From an uncultured Bacillales bacterium (GTDB lineage Bacteria > Bacillota_I > Bacilli_A > RF39 > UBA660): a DNA stretch of 63,346 nucleotides. Below are positions 27,791-63,346 of this stretch, piece after piece; position 1 is the stretch's first letter; each line of letters starts with the position of its first letter. Under the pieces are notes generated by a model that saw nothing but the letters and a program-made list of their open reading frames with translations, was not told where the DNA came from and did not search any database. The position numbers and the translations under genes were made by a program. The stretch is from contig CANSPQ010000004.1 of NCBI GenBank assembly GCA_947648915.1, forward strand, positions 1 through 63,346. The letters run 5' to 3'.

Positions 27791-27882
27791 TTGTGTAGAG
27801 CCTCACTCTACAACCACACAGAAAAGGTGAAAACATTAGTGTACCTTAATGGTGAGTCTTAGAATCTTAAAGGAGGTTATTT
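27791..27882 (+). promoter_or_regulatory. Structured 5' leader of rplU (possible L21 ribosomal-protein leader)
   Basis: About 90-nt UTR with hairpins TAGAG/CTCTA (27796-27810) and AAGGT...ACCTT. L21 leaders are known upstream of rplU in low-GC Gram-positives. Not verified with a covariance model. Confidence 0.35.
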
Positions 27883-28185
27883 ATGAAAGCTGTTATTGAA
27901 ACTGGTGGAAAGCAATACTACGTAGAAGAAGGAACTGTTCTTTATGTAGAAAAAATGGATGCAGAACCCGGTAAAGCAATTGAATTTGATAAAGTATTAA
28001 TGGCAAATGGTGTTGTAGGACGCCCTTATGTTACTGGAGCAAAAGTTACTGCTGAAGTAATCAAACATGGTAAGCAAAAGAAGATTATCGTTTATAAATA
28101 CAAGCAAAAGAAAAATTACCATAAGACACAAGGTCATCGTCAACCATACACTAAAGTACAAATTAAATCTATCGTGAGCAAATAA
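27883..28185 (+). CDS. rplU: 50S ribosomal protein L21
   Basis: [24 protein letters not shown]... is the canonical L21 N-terminus. Confidence 0.95.
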
Positions 28186-28499
28186 TGATAAGAATAGAGA
28201 TAGAAAATAAAGAAAAACCAGAAAGCATTGTTGTAGAGGGACATGCAGGGTATGGTGTAAGTGGTACCGATATTGTATGTGCGAGTGTGAGTAGTATTCT
28301 AATTACAACAATCAATGCGATGCTTCGTGTCGATGAAAAAAGTATTCGATATGTTCAAAAAGAAGCATATGTGAAATTAGAGATTATAACACATTCTACT
28401 ATGATTGATCTTTTAATGGAGAATATGATTTCACTGTTAGAGGAATTAGAACAAGATTATAAAAAATATGTAAAAATAAATAAGGAGGTGTACTTATGA
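28185..28499 (+). CDS. prp: Ribosomal-processing cysteine protease Prp (YsxB family)
   Basis: [19 protein letters not shown]. Located between rplU and rpmA. Confidence 0.9.
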
Positions 28500-28795
28500 C
28501 AAACTTTATGAGATTAGAAATTCAATTATTTGCGCATAAAAAAGGACAAGGATCTACGAAAAATGGACGTGATTCTATTGCCAAAAGATTAGGTGCGAAA
28601 GCAGCTGACGGAGAATATGTAAGTGGCGGATCTATTTTATATCGTCAACGTGGAACTAAAATTTATCCAGGACATAATGTAGGAATCGGTAGTGATGATA
28701 CTGTATATGCAAAAATAGCTGGATATGTGAAATTTGAACGTGTTGGAAGAGATAGAAAACAAGTAAGTGTTTATCCAGAAAAGCAAGAAGCGTAA
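28496..28795 (+). CDS. rpmA: 50S ribosomal protein L27 with N-terminal Prp-cleaved extension
   Basis: ...[21 protein letters not shown]. The extension before AHKKG matches the Firmicutes Prp substrate pattern. Confidence 0.95.
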
Positions 28796-40412: not shown

Positions 40413-41816
40413 ATGTTAACACAAGAACTAAACGGTATCATAATTGAAACACAAAAGATTGTAGAGGAGGCTTTTGAGTTTTTGCATGGCAAACCAGATT
40501 TAATTGATAGAATTCCTAGTGTAATGGAAACACCTAGATTATATGAAAATTTTAAACAGGCAATGCAAATAGAAAAAGAAAAGAAAATATGTATTGAAAA
40601 ATTGAAATATATTATAAAATCTATAAGCGATATTATGCCTAAATATTGTCTTGAAGAGTATGGATATGACTTTAAAAGTTATAATGATGCAATGTTTTTT
40701 CTCAAACGTAAACCATTTTATGATAGAGAGGAACAACAAAAAGCTTTTCAGTCACAATTTATGGAAGCTTGTACGGAAGAATTTCCTCAACTTTGTTTGA
40801 GAAATGGTCAAACTTTAAAATTTTTTAATGGAAGTGAGAAAGTATTTCAAATAGAGGATGATTTAGAAGATTTTTTAGATCAAAGTATGGGTATTTACTG
40901 TATAACAGTAAATTCTACAAATTTTGAAGAAGAATATCAAAAATATCGGTATCATTTATTACAACATGGGCACGAATATACAGGAGAAAATGAATTATAT
41001 CCATGGAATTGTATTGCTGAAACGTTAGCGCATCTTTTCGGTGGACAAGTAGAGTTTTGGGGATTTCCTTTTTCTTCATTTAATTTTCATTATCCTTATG
41101 ATTTTGACAATAAAAAATATATTGAATATATAAAAAAAATAGTAGAAATGAGAAAAAATAAGGATTTTATGAGAGCATATAAAATATATTGTTGTGTAAA
41201 AAATATGAATGACAAATTAGGCGATTTGGTATCTCATTATGAAAAGCTTTGTAATGAATGTTTTAACAGTATAAATATGGTATGCCCACAGAATATTGTA
41301 TTTTTGCAAAGATTATATAATTATATAGAATCTTGTAACGGGTATGAAGAGATAGATTATTATAAGGTATTGGATATAGATGCATATAGAGATATATGTG
41401 ATGATAATCACATTGGAGCATGGAAGTATGTGAAGGTAAAGTATCTTTCTATAGTTTCAAAATATTATTCAAATCCAAGGAGAAATCTTGTAAGGGCATG
41501 CTTTGAAGATGGCAGTATGCTTGGTTGTGATTATAGATTCAAAGACAAATCCAGTGAATTGTTATATAATGAAATGAAATTAGTAAAAGTCTGTGATACA
41601 GAAAAAGAAATCAATAATTGTATAAAAAATAAGATTATAATTGTTTCTAATGAAAATTTGAATTATACTGCATTATTAGAGGAGTATTATGCTCATATAG
41701 GAATGAATGCATTGGAATTTAGTCAAATGATTCGTGAAAAATATAATTGCGAAGTGATAACGCCAGAAATGAATCCAGAAAGAACAAAGTTGATGGTATA
41801 TTCAAATCACAAGTAA
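40413..41816 (+). CDS. Hypothetical soluble Cys/aromatic-rich protein, no recognised domain
   Basis: 467-aa ORF with RBS GGGGGGAAGGG. No TM and no motif I can name. Confidence 0.7.
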   Translation: MLTQELNGIIIETQKIVEEAFEFLHGKPDLIDRIPSVMETPRLYENFKQAMQIEKEKKICIEKLKYIIKSISDIMPKYCLEEYGYDFKSYNDAMFFLKRKPFYDREEQQKAFQSQFMEACTEEFPQLCLRNGQTLKFFNGSEKVFQIEDDLEDFLDQSMGIYCITVNSTNFEEEYQKYRYHLLQHGHEYTGENELYPWNCIAETLAHLFGGQVEFWGFPFSSFNFHYPYDFDNKKYIEYIKKIVEMRKNKDFMRAYKIYCCVKNMNDKLGDLVSHYEKLCNECFNSINMVCPQNIVFLQRLYNYIESCNGYEEIDYYKVLDIDAYRDICDDNHIGAWKYVKVKYLSIVSKYYSNPRRNLVRACFEDGSMLGCDYRFKDKSSELLYNEMKLVKVCDTEKEINNCIKNKIIIVSNENLNYTALLEEYYAHIGMNALEFSQMIREKYNCEVITPEMNPERTKLMVYSNHK

Positions 41817-41938
41817 AATATCTTTTCCAAGCATCGCAATTGTATTATTTAAAGGTATTTTTAAATAGTATATAGGGAAAGTTAATTATAAGCACTCATT
41901 TTCATCTTAAAATTGCATATATTAAAGTAGTCGTAAAT

Positions 41939-41966
41939 TTGACAAAATTGATATTTTTGATATAAT
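41939..41966 (+). promoter_or_regulatory. Near-consensus sigma-A promoter of the large ncRNA
   Basis: TTGACA (41939-41944), 16-nt spacer ending in TGA, TATAAT (41961-41966). Confidence 0.65.
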
Positions 41967-41972
41967 GATACT

Positions 41973-42580
41973 TGTAAATTGATGGCACATTATTCTAGTC
42001 AATTACATTTTTGATGAAGGTGGGGCTAAAAATCCACTAAAGAGCATACCTGTGAAGCTTCTGGTGCCTGCTGCTTACGCCCAGTTTGGGGTGGGTGCTG
42101 GAAGATAGAATATTGGGCGATTCATAATGGCATATGAAACCCGACCCAGTATTCGCGGAGACCTAGACTTGTTATTAGCCTATACATGGTAACCATTGAC
42201 GGACTGATGACGACCTAGGATTGAACCTACTATGTGGGGAAACTTACGAGTAGTGTAGCTTGTCTTGCGTGAACAATTTGGGATAGTTGAGCAAATAGTA
42301 CTAATTTGGCCAAATTGATACTGTTATCGCAACTTGAAATATTGTTTGCAAAAAAGAACTAATCAAAGATAGTGTTGGTGAGGAAATCTCCTAGAGTGTC
42401 CATTGGTATGGGATTGCAGTGCGTACTCAGTGGCAATCAAGCCATATATTCGGTGACGATATATCCATTTCTTTAAAGGGGAACCGCTACTCTGGTAACG
42501 GAAAGTAGAAATGGGGGAAATCCTGCTTGACCTTAAGACGTAAAGTTTACCATACCGATTGCCATTACTTTATTTTTTTT
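41973..42580 (+). ncRNA. ole: Large (about 610 nt) structured noncoding RNA, best interpreted as OLE (ornate, large, extremophilic) RNA
   Basis: No ORF of 60 aa or more in any frame. G+C rises sharply (42061-42120 is 34/60 by my count). GNRA-capped hairpins at 42227-42253 and 42487-42508. Long-range pairing of 42550-42563 with 42405-42411 and 42432-42438. The T-run at 42573-42580 is followed at once by a 4-TM protein gene. Identity with the OLE family is not verified by a covariance model. Confidence 0.6.
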
Positions 42581-42599
42581 ATGTTAAAGGTGAATTTAT

Positions 42600-43187
42600 A
42601 TGGACGAAGAAGTCAAAAATTTAAAAGTACAAACAAGAAGAAAAGAAAAAATAAACAAAAATAAAACAGAGTGGAAATGGATTATACAGATTACCTCAAT
42701 TGCATTTATGATATCCTTTCTATTTTCTTTTACATCAGAAATGGTTATACCAAATGTAAATATTGTCATAGGAATACTATTGTTAATTATTTTTATTTTA
42801 CTAGGTGTTCTATTTGATATGATTGGCGTTGCTGTTACAGCAGCCGATGAAAAGCCATTTCATTCGATGAATTCGAGAAAAGTAAAAGGAGCCGATATTG
42901 CGGTTAAATTTAAGAAAAATGCAGACAAAGTCGCATCATTCTGTAATGATGTAGTAGGAGATATTTGTGGGGTTGTTTCCGGATCAGCTGGGGCAATTAT
43001 TGCCTTATCTTTATCTAATATTCTTCATATGGATAAATTTATGATTACATTACTGGTAACTTCTTTGATAGCAGCTCTTACAATTGGTGGAAAAGCAATT
43101 GGTAAAAGTTATGCGATGAATAAAAGTAACATTATTTTATATCAATTTGCAAAAGCTATTTCCTATTTTTATAAACCAAAAAAGTAG
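42600..43187 (+). CDS. oapA: Four-TM membrane protein, candidate OLE-associated protein A
   Basis: 195 aa (about 21 kDa). Four hydrophobic segments at about residues 26-50, 53-82, 118-142 and 147-168. A basic loop HSMNSRKVKGADIAVKFKKNADK separates TM2 and TM3. An NDVVGD (D-x3-D) motif sits at TM3. RBS AAAGGTGA. Confidence 0.55.
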   Translation: MDEEVKNLKVQTRRKEKINKNKTEWKWIIQITSIAFMISFLFSFTSEMVIPNVNIVIGILLLIIFILLGVLFDMIGVAVTAADEKPFHSMNSRKVKGADIAVKFKKNADKVASFCNDVVGDICGVVSGSAGAIIALSLSNILHMDKFMITLLVTSLIAALTIGGKAIGKSYAMNKSNIILYQFAKAISYFYKPKK

Positions 43188-43280
43188 ACAAAATTCTACT
43201 TTTTTTGTAAAATTTGATATTTTTGTTGCTAAAGAGAGAACAAATACTGTATACTAATAATAGAAAAGGAGAATGGATTT

Positions 43281-44108
43281 ATGAAAAAATCAAAATGGTT
43301 AGCAGCTTTACTCGTATCAGTATTTGCGCTAACAGGTTGCGGTAGCAAGAATGATAGTAATGCGAGTGAAGTACTAGACAAAGCAAGAAAGCAAATGAAT
43401 GAACTATCTAACTATTCTATGAAAATGGAAATGAAGATGGGGATTAAGGCAGAAGGAATGACAATGGAAATTCCTGTTGTAGTAGATGCAAAAATTGATG
43501 CAAAATCAAAAACAGGAAAAATGACTACAACTGCAAGTATGTTTGGAATGGAATCTACTACAGAAGGATATACACAAGTAGTAGATGGAAAAACTATTAC
43601 CTATTCAAAAGGAAATTATGAATTTGATGGGGAACAAGTTTGGGTAAAAGAAACATCAGAAGATGAAACAAATTACAATGAGTTCGTTGCAATTACAGAA
43701 TTTGGAACAAAAGTAGAAAAGAAAAAATCAGATGACAAAAACGCAGATTACTATCAACTAACAATTTCTAAAGAAAAAATGAAAGAACTAATGAGTGAAT
43801 CTTCTAGTTTAATGGGAGATATGGATTTTGAATCAGCTGATATTAAAAATGATGTAGTATTAGATATTTATGTAGATAAAAAATCTAACTATATCACAAA
43901 ATTATCAATGGATTTAAAAGATGTGATTTCTATGGAGGATATGGAAGTTGCAATGGAAATCAGTGAATGTAGTCTTACTTTTACATTTGGTGATTTTGAT
44001 AAAGTAGGAACAATTACAATTCCAGAAGATGTGATTACAAATGCAATAGACCAATCTGATGATGATTGGAACTACGATGATCCTGAAATTACAAATCCAG
44101 AAATGTAA
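43281..44108 (+). CDS. Lipoprotein of unknown function
   Basis: Signal peptide with lipobox LTGC (MKKSKWLAALLVSVFALTGCGS). The mature part is beta-rich with an acidic C-terminus. Confidence 0.75.
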   Translation: MKKSKWLAALLVSVFALTGCGSKNDSNASEVLDKARKQMNELSNYSMKMEMKMGIKAEGMTMEIPVVVDAKIDAKSKTGKMTTTASMFGMESTTEGYTQVVDGKTITYSKGNYEFDGEQVWVKETSEDETNYNEFVAITEFGTKVEKKKSDDKNADYYQLTISKEKMKELMSESSSLMGDMDFESADIKNDVVLDIYVDKKSNYITKLSMDLKDVISMEDMEVAMEISECSLTFTFGDFDKVGTITIPEDVITNAIDQSDDDWNYDDPEITNPEM

Positions 44109-44178: not shown

Positions 44179-44739
44179 TTAATTTTCTTCACTTGATTCC
44201 GTATTGTTACTCATATATTCCGGATTAACAGATTCATCAATTTCATTTAGAACTGTTTCATCAACATCGTCCTCTATTTCATCCCATGGTTCTTCATCTT
44301 CTTCAATCGCAATTTTCATTTTTGTTTCTCCTACAATTTCAACCCCTAATTCTTTTTCAATATCAAAATTAATGTTTCCATTTTCATCAATATTTACTTT
44401 AATACAATTGGGTTGTTTTAACGTACGAACAATAATATCCGTATCACCCGTTAAATCCGCATTTTCTTTCACTTTCACATTGAATAAATCATTGTAATCT
44501 ACTTTTTTACTTACAACAGTTGTTTTACTATCACCATCATAAGAATACCAAATATTGACATCATATGAGCCATCGACACCGATCTTATCTCCTGATTTAT
44601 ACCCTTTAAATTTGTGATTAATTACCCAACATCCTAACACAGTTGTTGGTTCATTTTCTGTTGTAATTGTATAGTTGTTTTTAAAATATTTTTTTCCTTT
44701 ACCAATCACTGCTTTTGTAACAATTTCTTTGTAAGCCAC
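44179..44739 (-). CDS. cotE: Spore coat morphogenetic protein CotE
   Basis: GAGGGGTG RBS then GTG at 44739. YKEIVTKAVIGKGKK..., VLGCWVINHKF, DVNIWYSYDGDSKTTVV, LKQPNCIKVNI, EIVGETK and the acidic tail are colinear with B. subtilis CotE (YREIITKAVVAKGRK...WIINHKY...INVWYSY...LQQPNCLEVTI...EVVGETK) as I recall it. Confidence 0.85.
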   Translation of the reverse strand: MAYKEIVTKAVIGKGKKYFKNNYTITTENEPTTVLGCWVINHKFKGYKSGDKIGVDGSYDVNIWYSYDGDSKTTVVSKKVDYNDLFNVKVKENADLTGDTDIIVRTLKQPNCIKVNIDENGNINFDIEKELGVEIVGETKMKIAIEEDEEPWDEIEDDVDETVLNEIDESVNPEYMSNNTESSEEN

Positions 44740-44844
44740 GATATCACCCCTCACTTTAATGTATGCGAGTATCCATGAAAAGTGTACCATAAACCTGCAT
44801 AAAATAAGAAATTTAGAATATAGTACAGTGTGAACAAAAAAAGG

Positions 44845-52877: not shown

Positions 52878-54318
52878 TAGAATGACTGCTGGGGCCTCTA
52901 ATGATATTGCCATCAACATCAAAACGAGAACTATGACATGGACAATCCCATGTTTTTTCTTGTTCATTAAAAATGAGATGACACTTCATATGAGGACAAG
53001 TATTTAAAACTTTATGTCTAACACCGTTTTCATCAATATAGATACCAACTCTTATTCCATTTTCATAGATGACACAAACATGATTTTGATAAAATTTAGG
53101 ATTTTTAATAAGCGTTGTCTGTAAGTAAACCTTTCCATATCGAACACCATCTACTAAAAAATGCATAGAACGTACAAGATTCCAATTTCTTTTGATTGCA
53201 AATAAATCTTCATAAGGGGAAGTTCCTTTTTGAATGATGTCAGCAATCACCTGTCCTGCTAACACACCATTGGTCATTCCCCAAGTCTGAAAACCAGTGG
53301 CAAGCAAAAGATGAGATCCTTTTTCCGTTTCGCCAATAAAGGGAAGACCATCATTGGGAATAATGTCTTGATTGAACCATATACAATCAATCTTTGTCTG
53401 AAAATGATTTTGAAAACGTGTCTTGAAATTCTCAAAATTTTTGCCATCATCTAAATGGTTCGTAAGTGCATGCGCATAACTTCCATATAAAAGATAGTTT
53501 TTATGATAACGAATAGAGTGCATTGGAACTCCTGTTGTAATACAAGAAAGAGATAATGGATTTTTGGTAGATGATGCAATGACATAAGATTTTTCAATAT
53601 GTGTTTTCAGGGGAATGTATCCAGGGTTTATAAAAAAAGGATAGTGTGTACAAACAACTACGTAATTTGCTTGGATGTCGCCAATATTTGTTCTAATGAG
53701 ATAACCATCTTCTTTTTTATTCAATTCTATTGCACATACATTTTCATGGATGGTAACTTTATGCTCTATTAATTTTTTTAGACCATATACATATTTTAAT
53801 GGATGAAATACGGCGCCCTCAACTTCCAAACCATATTGGATGGAAATTGGAAGGGGAAGATCATTTATGGTGGTGTAAGGAACATTCCATTCTTTTAAAA
53901 ATTTTTCTTCTTTTTTGAGTTTGGATACTTGTTTTTTTGTAGAGGCTAAAATATACTCCTTTACCTTTTCATAATCACAATTGAGTTGATAGTCTTTAAT
54001 AATTGTTTCAATCTAGTGAAATGCTTCTACTTGTGATTCATAGTATTTTTTAGCAGCTTCCTTTCCATGCATAGATGCAATTTTTGAGTAGGGAAGCTCT
54101 TGTAAATAGGATATTTTAGCGGTTGTATATGCAGTGGCTCCAAAACCAATGGTCCCTTTATCAATTAAAAGAATGTCATAATTACTATCTTTTAAAGCAA
54201 ATGCAGTAGATATTCCCGTAATACCACCACCAATGATACAAATATCTACTTTTTTCTTTTCTAAAATAGGTTTTTTTGTATTTTTTAAAAATCCCTGTAA
54301 CCAAAGAGAATTATTCAT
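52861..54318 (-). pseudogene. FAD-dependent oxidoreductase with C-terminal Rieske [2Fe-2S] domain, interrupted by one in-frame TAG
   Basis: N-terminal VDICIIGGGITGISTAFAL (FAD GxGxxG). C-terminal CPHMKCHL...CPCHSSRFD (Rieske CxH...CxxH). ORFs 54318-54013 and 53829-52861 share a frame. The only stop between them is TAG (complement of 54010-54012). Confidence 0.75.
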
Positions 54319-57688: not shown

Positions 57689-57765
57689 TGGTGTTCATGA
57701 TGAGATTTGAACTCATGACCTCTTCCTTCGGAGGGAAGCACTCTATCCAGCTGAGCTACATGAAC
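57689..57765 (-). tRNA. tRNA-Arg (anticodon CCG), CCA encoded
   Basis: The reverse complement GTTCATGTAGCTCAGCTGGATAGAGTGCTTCCCTCCGAAGGAAGAGGTCATGAGTTCAAATCTCATCATGAACACCA folds as a cloverleaf. Anticodon loop is CTCCGAA. Confidence 0.95.
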
Positions 57766-57809: not shown

Positions 57810-57885
57810 TGGTGGACTGTTAGGGATTCGAACCCTAGACCCACTGATTAAGAGTCAGTTGCTCTACCAACTGAGCTAACAGTCC
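57810..57885 (-). tRNA. tRNA-Lys (anticodon CUU), CCA encoded
   Basis: The reverse complement GGACTGTTAGCTCAGTTGGTAGAGCAACTGACTCTTAATCAGTGGGTCTAGGGTTCGAATCCCTAACAGTCCACCA folds as a cloverleaf. Anticodon loop is CTCTTAA. Confidence 0.95.
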
Positions 57886-63292: not shown

Positions 63293-63346
63293 GGCGCTGT
63301 AGCTCAGTTGGCTAGAGCAATCGGTTCATACCCGATAGGTCGAGAG
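63293..63346 (+). tRNA. 5' part of a tRNA with CAU anticodon (elongator tRNA-Met-like); continues beyond the window
   Basis: GGCGCTGTAGCTCAGTTGGCTAGAGCAATCGGTTCATACCCGATAGGTCGAGAG has anticodon loop TTCATAC. It closely resembles B. subtilis elongator tRNA-Met as I recall it. An Ile2 (lysidine) identity cannot be excluded. Confidence 0.85.

Follow-up and report, generated by a model that had tools for sequence, protein, structure and literature searches.

Region of interest and its identification

In this study we asked what is encoded at positions 41,939 to 43,187 of contig CANSPQ010000004.1 (assembly GCA_947648915.1), which comes from an uncultured Bacillales bacterium and whose full 63,346 nucleotides, referred to below as the window, were analysed. 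A first-pass annotation, made from the sequence alone, had described this region as a G+C-rich, highly structured transcript free of open reading frames (ORFs), followed by the gene of a protein with four transmembrane (TM) segments. It left two readings: OLE RNA with the gene of its partner protein OapA or, as a fallback, a new large non-coding RNA (ncRNA). OLE RNA (Rfam RF01071) is reportedly known from Puerta-Fernandez et al. (2006) and from the Breaker laboratory.

We identify the region here as an ole-oapA unit, and a two-gene unit made of OLE RNA and then oapA is almost certainly the best explanation of the data. The first of the two readings was thus the right one, with strongly positive results both for a full-length Rfam OLE match and for OapA similarity. 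The locus is a textbook, standard full-length ole-oapA copy from an uncultured gut Bacilli genome, that is, an already known pair of RNA and protein and not a new kind of element.

OLE RNA

To identify the RNA, the whole window was scanned with all 4227 Rfam families. OLE matched from end to end (model positions 1-616 of 616), with 436.7 bits against a gathering score of 50 (E 6e-125). A second, permissive local search (41850-42700, E <= 10) left the OLE outcome unchanged and found no Rfam family besides OLE in that interval, the next-best scores being at most 18 bits. In a published survey, copies with at least 390 bits were regarded as 'full-length' OLE, and the window copy falls within this range, the threshold having been set with a different model (PMC11332333).

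The agreement with the family extends to single positions and pairs. The window RNA was identical to the consensus at 213 of the 249 highly conserved (upper-case) positions (86%), and 141 of the 159 consensus base pairs were canonical, with 13 non-canonical and 5 deleted. The z-score of its minimum free energy (MFE) was -3.6. The base composition described in the first-pass annotation was found as stated (34 G+C among the 60 nucleotides of 42061-42120); over its whole length the RNA has 40.7% G+C, compared with 26.6% and 30.5% in the two 1-kb flanks and 29.5% in the whole window. The lack of coding potential was confirmed as well, since no ORF of 60 aa or longer lies within 41816-42600 and the longest in any frame have 42, 45 and 57 aa.

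The window copy resembles OLE RNA in its length, conserved blocks and helices, in the A-rich and GGCC loops, the GNRA hairpin and the U-rich 3' tail, and in the presence of oapA immediately 3'. The conserved dimerisation loops (CUAAAAAU and GGCC) are both present in the sequence. OLE hosts belong to Bacillota and are typically anaerobes or extremophiles. The host of the window copy also belongs in Bacillota: the nearest loci come from gut 'uncultured Bacilli bacterium' metagenome-assembled genomes (MAGs), and the window carries CotE and an L21 leader. The gut source alone suggests that this host is probably an anaerobe. The features of the locus are collected in Table 1.

Table 1. Features of the ole-oapA locus in window coordinates.
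Feature	Position	Strand	Basis or remark
SigA-type (sigma-70) promoter, TTGACA-16 nt-TG-extended TATAAT	41939-41966	+	12/12 score
OLE RNA gene (extent of Rfam match)	41966-42581	+	RF01071, 616-nt match
Terminal helix, 5' strand	41974-41987	+	pairs with 42560-42573
P3.1/P3-type stem, 5' strand	41987-41998	+	pairs with 42391-42399, encloses 5' domain
Hairpin with conserved A-rich loop CUAAAAAU	42019-42038	+	6-bp consensus helix, loop identical to model
Long G+C-rich hairpin, loop GCCCA	42058-42104	+	20-bp consensus stem, contains 11-bp helix
GAAA-capped hairpin	42227-42253	+	consensus helix
Tip of long stem, palindromic loop UGGCCA at 42307-42312	42292-42327	+	15-bp consensus helix
P3/P3.1-type stem, 3' strand (CUAGAGUGU)	42391-42399	+	covaries with 41987-41998
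3' domain	42401-42560	+	closed by Rfam consensus helix 42401-42411:42550-42560 (11 bp)
GUAA (GNRA)-capped hairpin	42486-42506	+	consensus helix, loop 42495-42498
Terminal helix, 3' strand (42560-42573), then U8 tract (42573-42580)	42560-42580	+	covarying helix; U-rich tail
Ribosome-binding site AAAGGTGA, 7 nt 5' of ATG	42586-42593	+	sequence; kept in related locus L001
oapA, 195-aa four-helix membrane protein, DxxxD at residues 117-121	42600-43187	+	homology, fold, linkage
Terminator-like hairpin (core GUAGA/UCUAC), then U7	43180-43206	+	overlaps oapA stop; -7.2 kcal/mol, z -2.6

The protein encoded downstream of OLE

The start of the downstream gene was as first described, with the T-run, the ribosome-binding site and the ATG all in place, and oapA begins 19 nt past the last position of the OLE match. 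The description of the product, a protein of 195 aa with a D-x3-D motif, was likewise correct: it has a mass of 21.5 kDa and a pI of 9.7, contains D117-VVG-D121 and has four predicted hydrophobic helices. Published hallmarks of OapA are a size of ~21 kDa, four TM helices, a distinctive DxxxD motif and a gene directly 3' of ole (PMC11332333, PMC12265935). Further OapA traits are a conserved cluster of basic residues facing the cytoplasm and the lack of a proline that CNNM domains conserve. Compared with the OapA in the supplement of an OLE cryo-EM paper (PMC12286853), the window protein was 42% identical over 171 aa (E 5e-36); this comparison sequence was taken from machine-extracted text, with its source species unconfirmed.

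An exhaustive HMMER search returned relatives of similar size in 870 clusters (50% identity) at E <= 1e-10. In an alignment with 65 relatives (34-52% identity), residues D117, G120, D121, G128 and K169 were invariant, and the DxxxD motif lay within an FCNDVxGDIxG block. The hydrophobic segments span residues of about 27-46, 44-84, 118-142 and 144-167. The AlphaFold model (predicted local distance difference test, pLDDT, 81; predicted template modelling score, pTM, 0.71) places helices at 25-49, 55-81, 108-142 and 146-174. Between helices 2 and 3 there is a basic loop (88-110) with R93, K94, K96, K103, K105, K106 and K110, among which R93, K106 and K110 are invariant in close relatives.

OapA has been described as having weak, sub-threshold homology to the CNNM (DUF21) domain together with a CorB-like predicted fold, and the top fold match of OapA from Halalkalibacterium halodurans was 7M1U (PMC11332333). 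The window protein behaved in the same way. Its sole Pfam match was CNNM (PF01595) with 21.7 bits, under the 28.4-bit cutoff, and the only meaningful fold matches in PDB were the membrane domains of CorB (7M1T, 7M1U) and CorC (7CFF, 7CFG), with a Foldseek probability of 1.0 and query-normalised TM-scores of 0.52-0.57 to 7M1T, 7M1U and 7CFF. Searches by sequence found no match among PDB sequences at E <= 1 and no matching NCBIfam model. We also considered a Mg2+ transporter of the CNNM/CorB/CorC/MpfA type, with which the window protein shares the membrane-domain fold and the weak sequence similarity. This candidate was rejected because the score is below the gathering threshold, because the protein, with its 195 aa, lacks CBS-pair and CorC/HlyC domains, and because it has four helices and not three; moreover, it contains a DxxxD motif, a feature absent from CNNM domains (PMC11332333). 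The window protein thus agrees with OapA in every feature that was testable, and we noticed no difference of note.

Linkage of OLE and oapA in related loci

A scan of GTDB for the OapA motif, in which each species was represented by a single genome, gave 80 further loci, and 86 in all. The further loci were mostly 'uncultured Bacilli bacterium' gut MAGs (human, goat, mouse, rabbit, chicken), and others came from some Oscillospiraceae and one Clostridium oceanicum. By iterated nhmmer, OLE was found on the same strand and 5' of the OapA gene in 83 of the 86 loci, in 71 of these 83 within 150 nt. The contigs encoding 87%- and 74%-identical OapA are both from gut metagenomes, each with OLE (421-432 bits) immediately 5'.

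Rare exceptions to this linkage are loci L014 and L030, which encode OapA homologues with about 60% identity to the window protein and lack OLE in the 5 kb to each side. Locus L054 offers only 116 nt of upstream sequence and is for this reason not assessable for OLE. In eight other loci (L029, L034, L035, L039, L043, L051, L062, and L065) OLE is located 0.5-3.8 kb 5' of oapA, and several of them show a clear terminator hairpin, rich in G+C, after the 3' tail of OLE. Since such copies have a terminator of their own at a distance from oapA, OLE can be a separate transcription unit.

Helices and fold of the RNA

Comparative analysis of its helices shows that the window RNA adopts the conserved OLE architecture. 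The local helices listed in the first-pass annotation were real and coincided with helices of the Rfam OLE consensus. The GAAA-capped hairpin had a folding energy of -9.3 kcal/mol (z -3.9) and the GUAA-capped one, taken as 42487-42508, of -5.1 kcal/mol (z -2.0). The 11-bp helix 42058-42068:42094-42104, which includes four G-U pairs, is the base of the 20-bp consensus stem; the complete hairpin reached -23.6 kcal/mol (z -3.4). All three foldings were compared with shuffled controls.

Several of these hairpins can be related to published OLE elements by analogy. The hairpin at 42019-42038 is probably P4, a published dimerisation contact, and the stem tip at 42292-42327, whose loop GGCC is invariant in the Rfam model and in alignment A1, is probably P9, the published kissing-loop dimerisation site (PMC12265935). 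By its position and tetraloop, the GUAA hairpin is probably the OapB-binding hairpin P13 (PMC7936274). The binding sites on OLE are the P13 GNRA hairpin for OapB and a k-turn near P5 for OapC.

The first-pass annotation had also proposed that one 14-nt segment pairs contiguously with two separated upstream segments, and this claim held only in its first half. The pairing of CCATACC (42550-56) with GGTATGG (42405-11) belongs to the consensus helix that closes the 3' domain, in which related locus L004 shows a compensatory change (UUAUAUAG:CUAUAUAA). The second half, GATTGCC (42557-63) with GGCAATC (42432-38), was not conserved, being complementary in the window and not in the 74%-identity relatives. 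The partners of such segments were compared in an alignment-free manner, with duplex energies of own versus swapped segments across 57 distinct OLE RNAs. For 42557-42563:42432-42438 the native duplexes were no better than the swapped ones (-6.54 versus -6.65 kcal/mol, z +0.9), and this pairing was rejected. A shorter pseudoknot version (GUGGY with RCCRY) was rejected as well, its native and swapped duplex energies being alike.

The same comparison gave a different partner for the 3' tail. The segment 42560-42573 forms a terminal helix with 41974-41987 (13 bp, one mismatch, -10.7 kcal/mol), which is also predicted in the MFE fold. Across the 57 RNAs the native duplexes reached -11.54 kcal/mol versus -7.69 kcal/mol for the swapped ones (z -11.6), with none of 5000 permutations as good, and the 5'-terminal partner was better than the internal segment in 53 of the 57. 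The permutation test makes no correction for relatedness, but the difference is large, and pairs of diverse types occur. Covariation is visible in the strands themselves, which read UGAUGGCA:UGCCAUUA in the window, AAGAAGUGGU:ACCAUUUCUU in L028, AAGAGUGGCG:CGCCACUCUU in L066, and GCUAAGCAGCGG:CCGCUGCCUUAGC in L061. The helix begins 7-8 nt past the -10 box, and its 3' strand leads directly to the U8 tract. A U-rich tail belongs to the Rfam OLE consensus and is a common feature of the related loci.

A second long-range stem is composed of 41994-41998:42391-42395 plus 41987-41990:42396-42399. Its pair -5:a2 was canonical in 38 of 38 cases (UG 25, UA 5, GC 6, CG 2), and so was its pair -1:a1 (UA 24, UG 11, CG 3; 38 of 38). 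The 5' domain inside this stem carries the conserved A-rich and GGCC-palindrome loops. Both long-range helices covary strongly across about 40-57 distinct OLE RNAs, and the structure line of the Rfam OLE family treats their nucleotides as unpaired. Compared with the published structure (PMC12265935), the second stem would correspond to P3/P3.1, and the two together are probably the published outer helices; the P-numbers are tentative.

Promoter and transcription unit

The promoter noted in the first-pass annotation was confirmed as an extended -10 promoter and as the only perfect match in 41500-43500. Of 59 distinct related loci, 44 show a promoter scoring 10/12 or more upstream of OLE, at a fixed distance from its 5' end, and 40 show one scoring 11/12 or more; in control windows from the same loci the mean best score was 6.6. 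The conserved promoters are mostly TG-extended, and 21-32 nt lie between the end of their -10 box and the conserved CUAGUCA block. Conservation in related loci L001, L004, and L006 covers the -35 box and about 45 nt 5' of it. The window promoter is thus not a chance match.

From this strong SigA-type promoter, transcription would start near 41973, and the transcript would be an OLE RNA of about 600 nt; judged from the sequence, its first nucleotide is probably near 41973-41974. No canonical intrinsic terminator was found between OLE and oapA, and the 42540-42600 fold contained no significant local hairpin (z -0.3). Since no such terminator separates the two genes, transcription would probably read on into oapA, and it would probably end at the weak hairpin and U-run at 43180-43206, a hairpin that the consensus terminator scan missed because its stem has fewer than three G-C pairs. 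Promoter, OLE, oapA and terminator would accordingly make up one unit in which RNA and protein gene are presumably co-transcribed.

Alternative explanations

The arrangement just described leads to the first alternative, namely that the 600-nt element is mainly a cis-regulatory leader of oapA, with read-through controlled at U8, and not a trans-acting RNA. One promoter shared by OLE and oapA, the missing canonical terminator between them and the position of U8 directly after the terminal helix would all suit a leader. Against it, several related loci have OLE 0.5-3.8 kb away from oapA and with its own terminator hairpin, and therefore the RNA is conserved independently of a leader position. 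Moreover, the strands of the terminal helix are about 575 nt apart, which makes an intrinsic terminator unlikely, and in published work OLE is abundant and stable and binds OapA in trans (PMC12265935). We consider a mainly cis-regulatory role improbable.

Secondly, the window copy could have lost its function and be in decay, an OLE remnant left stranded when a segment with a 467-aa orphan ORF was inserted nearby. About 1.7 kb are indeed inserted between the ABC-transporter gene and OLE in comparison with related loci L001 and L002, and the 13 non-canonical consensus pairs and the loss of one small hairpin might be taken for decay. However, the OLE score is as high as in these insertion-free relatives (432 and 421 bits), the promoter and about 45 nt 5' of it are intact and conserved, the oapA frame is intact with all invariant residues kept, and the missing hairpin is absent clade-wide. 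Such decay is very improbable.

Finally, an unclassified large structured RNA, or a member of the ROOL, GOLLD or raiA families, that resembles OLE in size and context only has next to no probability, because apart from the caution of the first-pass annotation it has in its favour only a size and G+C richness that are generic to large ncRNAs, and it is faced with the full-length OLE match, the 86% of conserved positions kept and the silence of all three other families at E <= 10 in 41850-42700, where nothing besides OLE exceeded 18 bits. The fallback of a new large ncRNA is thereby refuted.

Returning to the ole-oapA unit, none of the evidence contradicts the identification, which has several limits. 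The window OLE lacks a 4-bp hairpin (model positions 424-434, window 42399-42401) that would follow the CCUAGA block and precede the helix closing the 3' domain, and its loop at 42187-42200 is longer by 14 nt than the consensus. The hairpin is absent in all gut-Bacilli loci and present, sometimes enlarged, in the Oscillospiraceae and Clostridium loci, so its loss is a clade-level structural variant. The genes oapB, oapC and bS21 (rpsU) were not found in the window: tblastn with oapC/ybxF and bS21 gave only noise there (E above 4), and Pfam revealed no L7Ae (OapC-type) or KOW (OapB-type, ybzG) protein among the small window ORFs scanned. According to published profiling, hosts of full-length OLE are expected to carry oapB and oapC and to lack MpfA. 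Lastly, any function ascribed to the window ole-oapA would be an extrapolation from distant species.

Genomic context

As remarked in the first-pass annotation, the neighbourhood contains no isoprenoid or recN genes; the window copy has an ABC transporter, a DUF6612 lipoprotein, cotE, and rpsP as neighbours. Upstream, in outward order, there are the 467-aa orphan ORF, a MacB/FtsX-type ABC transporter pair, two unknown ORFs and a two-component system. Downstream, oapA is followed by the DUF6612 lipoprotein, cotE on the opposite strand, rpsP, a KhpA-type KH protein, a beta-lactamase-fold protein, an alpha/beta hydrolase, a Mur ligase and Ddl. Sporulation, translation and cell wall are gene categories associated with OLE in published neighbourhoods (PMC12265935), and neighbours of the window copy fall into them.

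The gene of the outer spore coat protein E, cotE, occupies 44179-44790 (-) in the window, 9644-10204 in L001, 7636-8196 in L002, and 8330-8878 in L004. Its distance from oapA is one to three genes, both in the window and in relatives whose OapA is as little as 74% identical. Such proximity agrees with a statistical association of OLE with sporulation genes that has been published.

A neighbouring remnant of an Rpn nuclease, suggested in the first-pass annotation, could not be substantiated, as the neighbouring ORFs had no Pfam match even at E <= 5. The orphan gene mentioned there is indeed an orphan: the 467-aa ORF (40413-41816, +; flanks 40155 to about 41890) has no detectable family, since searches of Pfam, NCBIfam, PHROGs and PADLOC, and of the plasmid collection by tblastn, gave no match. 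The ~1.7-kb segment with this ORF is absent in L001 and L002, where the ABC-transporter permease gene directly precedes the OLE promoter region; its absence in the closest relatives marks it as a lineage-specific indel.

Other features of the window

A leader of ribosomal protein L21 was found at 27802-27869 (+; RF00559, 45.3 bits), with three ORFs 3' of it at 27883-28795. The middle one is a Prp cysteine protease according to Pfam, and the outer two are presumably rplU and rpmA. Two complete tRNA genes are located at 57692-57765 (-) and 57813-57885 (-), and another, at 63293-63346 (+), is cut by the window end. The match of a 101-aa ORF at 54013-54318 (-) to the FAD-dependent oxidoreductase (DAO) domain is confined to roughly the first 60 positions of the domain, and this ORF may be a truncated gene fragment.

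Near the other end of the window, a 135-aa protein (216-623, +) contains three Ltp-type 'host cell surface-exposed lipoprotein' repeats (PF07553), a domain known from prophage superinfection-exclusion proteins. A 1499-aa ORF lies just 3' of its gene.

Possible function and significance

By analogy with the OLE RNAs of H. halodurans and Clostridium, the window RNA would dimerise through its conserved loops and, bound by OapA dimers, would be kept at the cell membrane or possibly across it. Cooperative binding of OLE RNA by OapA and its tethering to the membrane were described by Block et al. 2011, as cited in PMC12265935. A ribonucleoprotein formed with OapB, OapC and bS21 would, again by analogy, aid tolerance of cold, short-chain alcohols, excess Mg2+ and poor carbon sources. 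The proposal that OLE spans the membrane bilayer is recent.

The window copy itself is nothing categorically new, since the standard Rfam model detects it and published surveys have already covered all GTDB genomes for OLE. There are three modest by-products. An ole-oapA unit of a gut Bacilli lineage has been well delimited from promoter to terminator; the end-joining helix and the P3/P3.1-type stem, both unannotated in the Rfam structure line, have gained comparative support; and there is evidence that loci of the gut-Bacilli clade as a rule have a strong promoter dedicated to this unit. In this last respect the two-gene unit with its own consensus promoter differs from H. halodurans, where OLE reportedly belongs to a long polycistronic cluster of housekeeping genes (PMC12265935).

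We would suggest, only tentatively, that the ole-oapA of gut Bacilli is an autonomous two-gene module with its own near-consensus promoter, in which the terminal helix and U8 could terminate transcription incompletely and thereby keep the ratio of OLE to OapA high. OLE is among the most intriguing bacterial ncRNAs, being large, ornate and membrane-associated, and if this suggestion is true, the module would offer a natural and compact system in which to study the coupling of OLE expression to its membrane partner.

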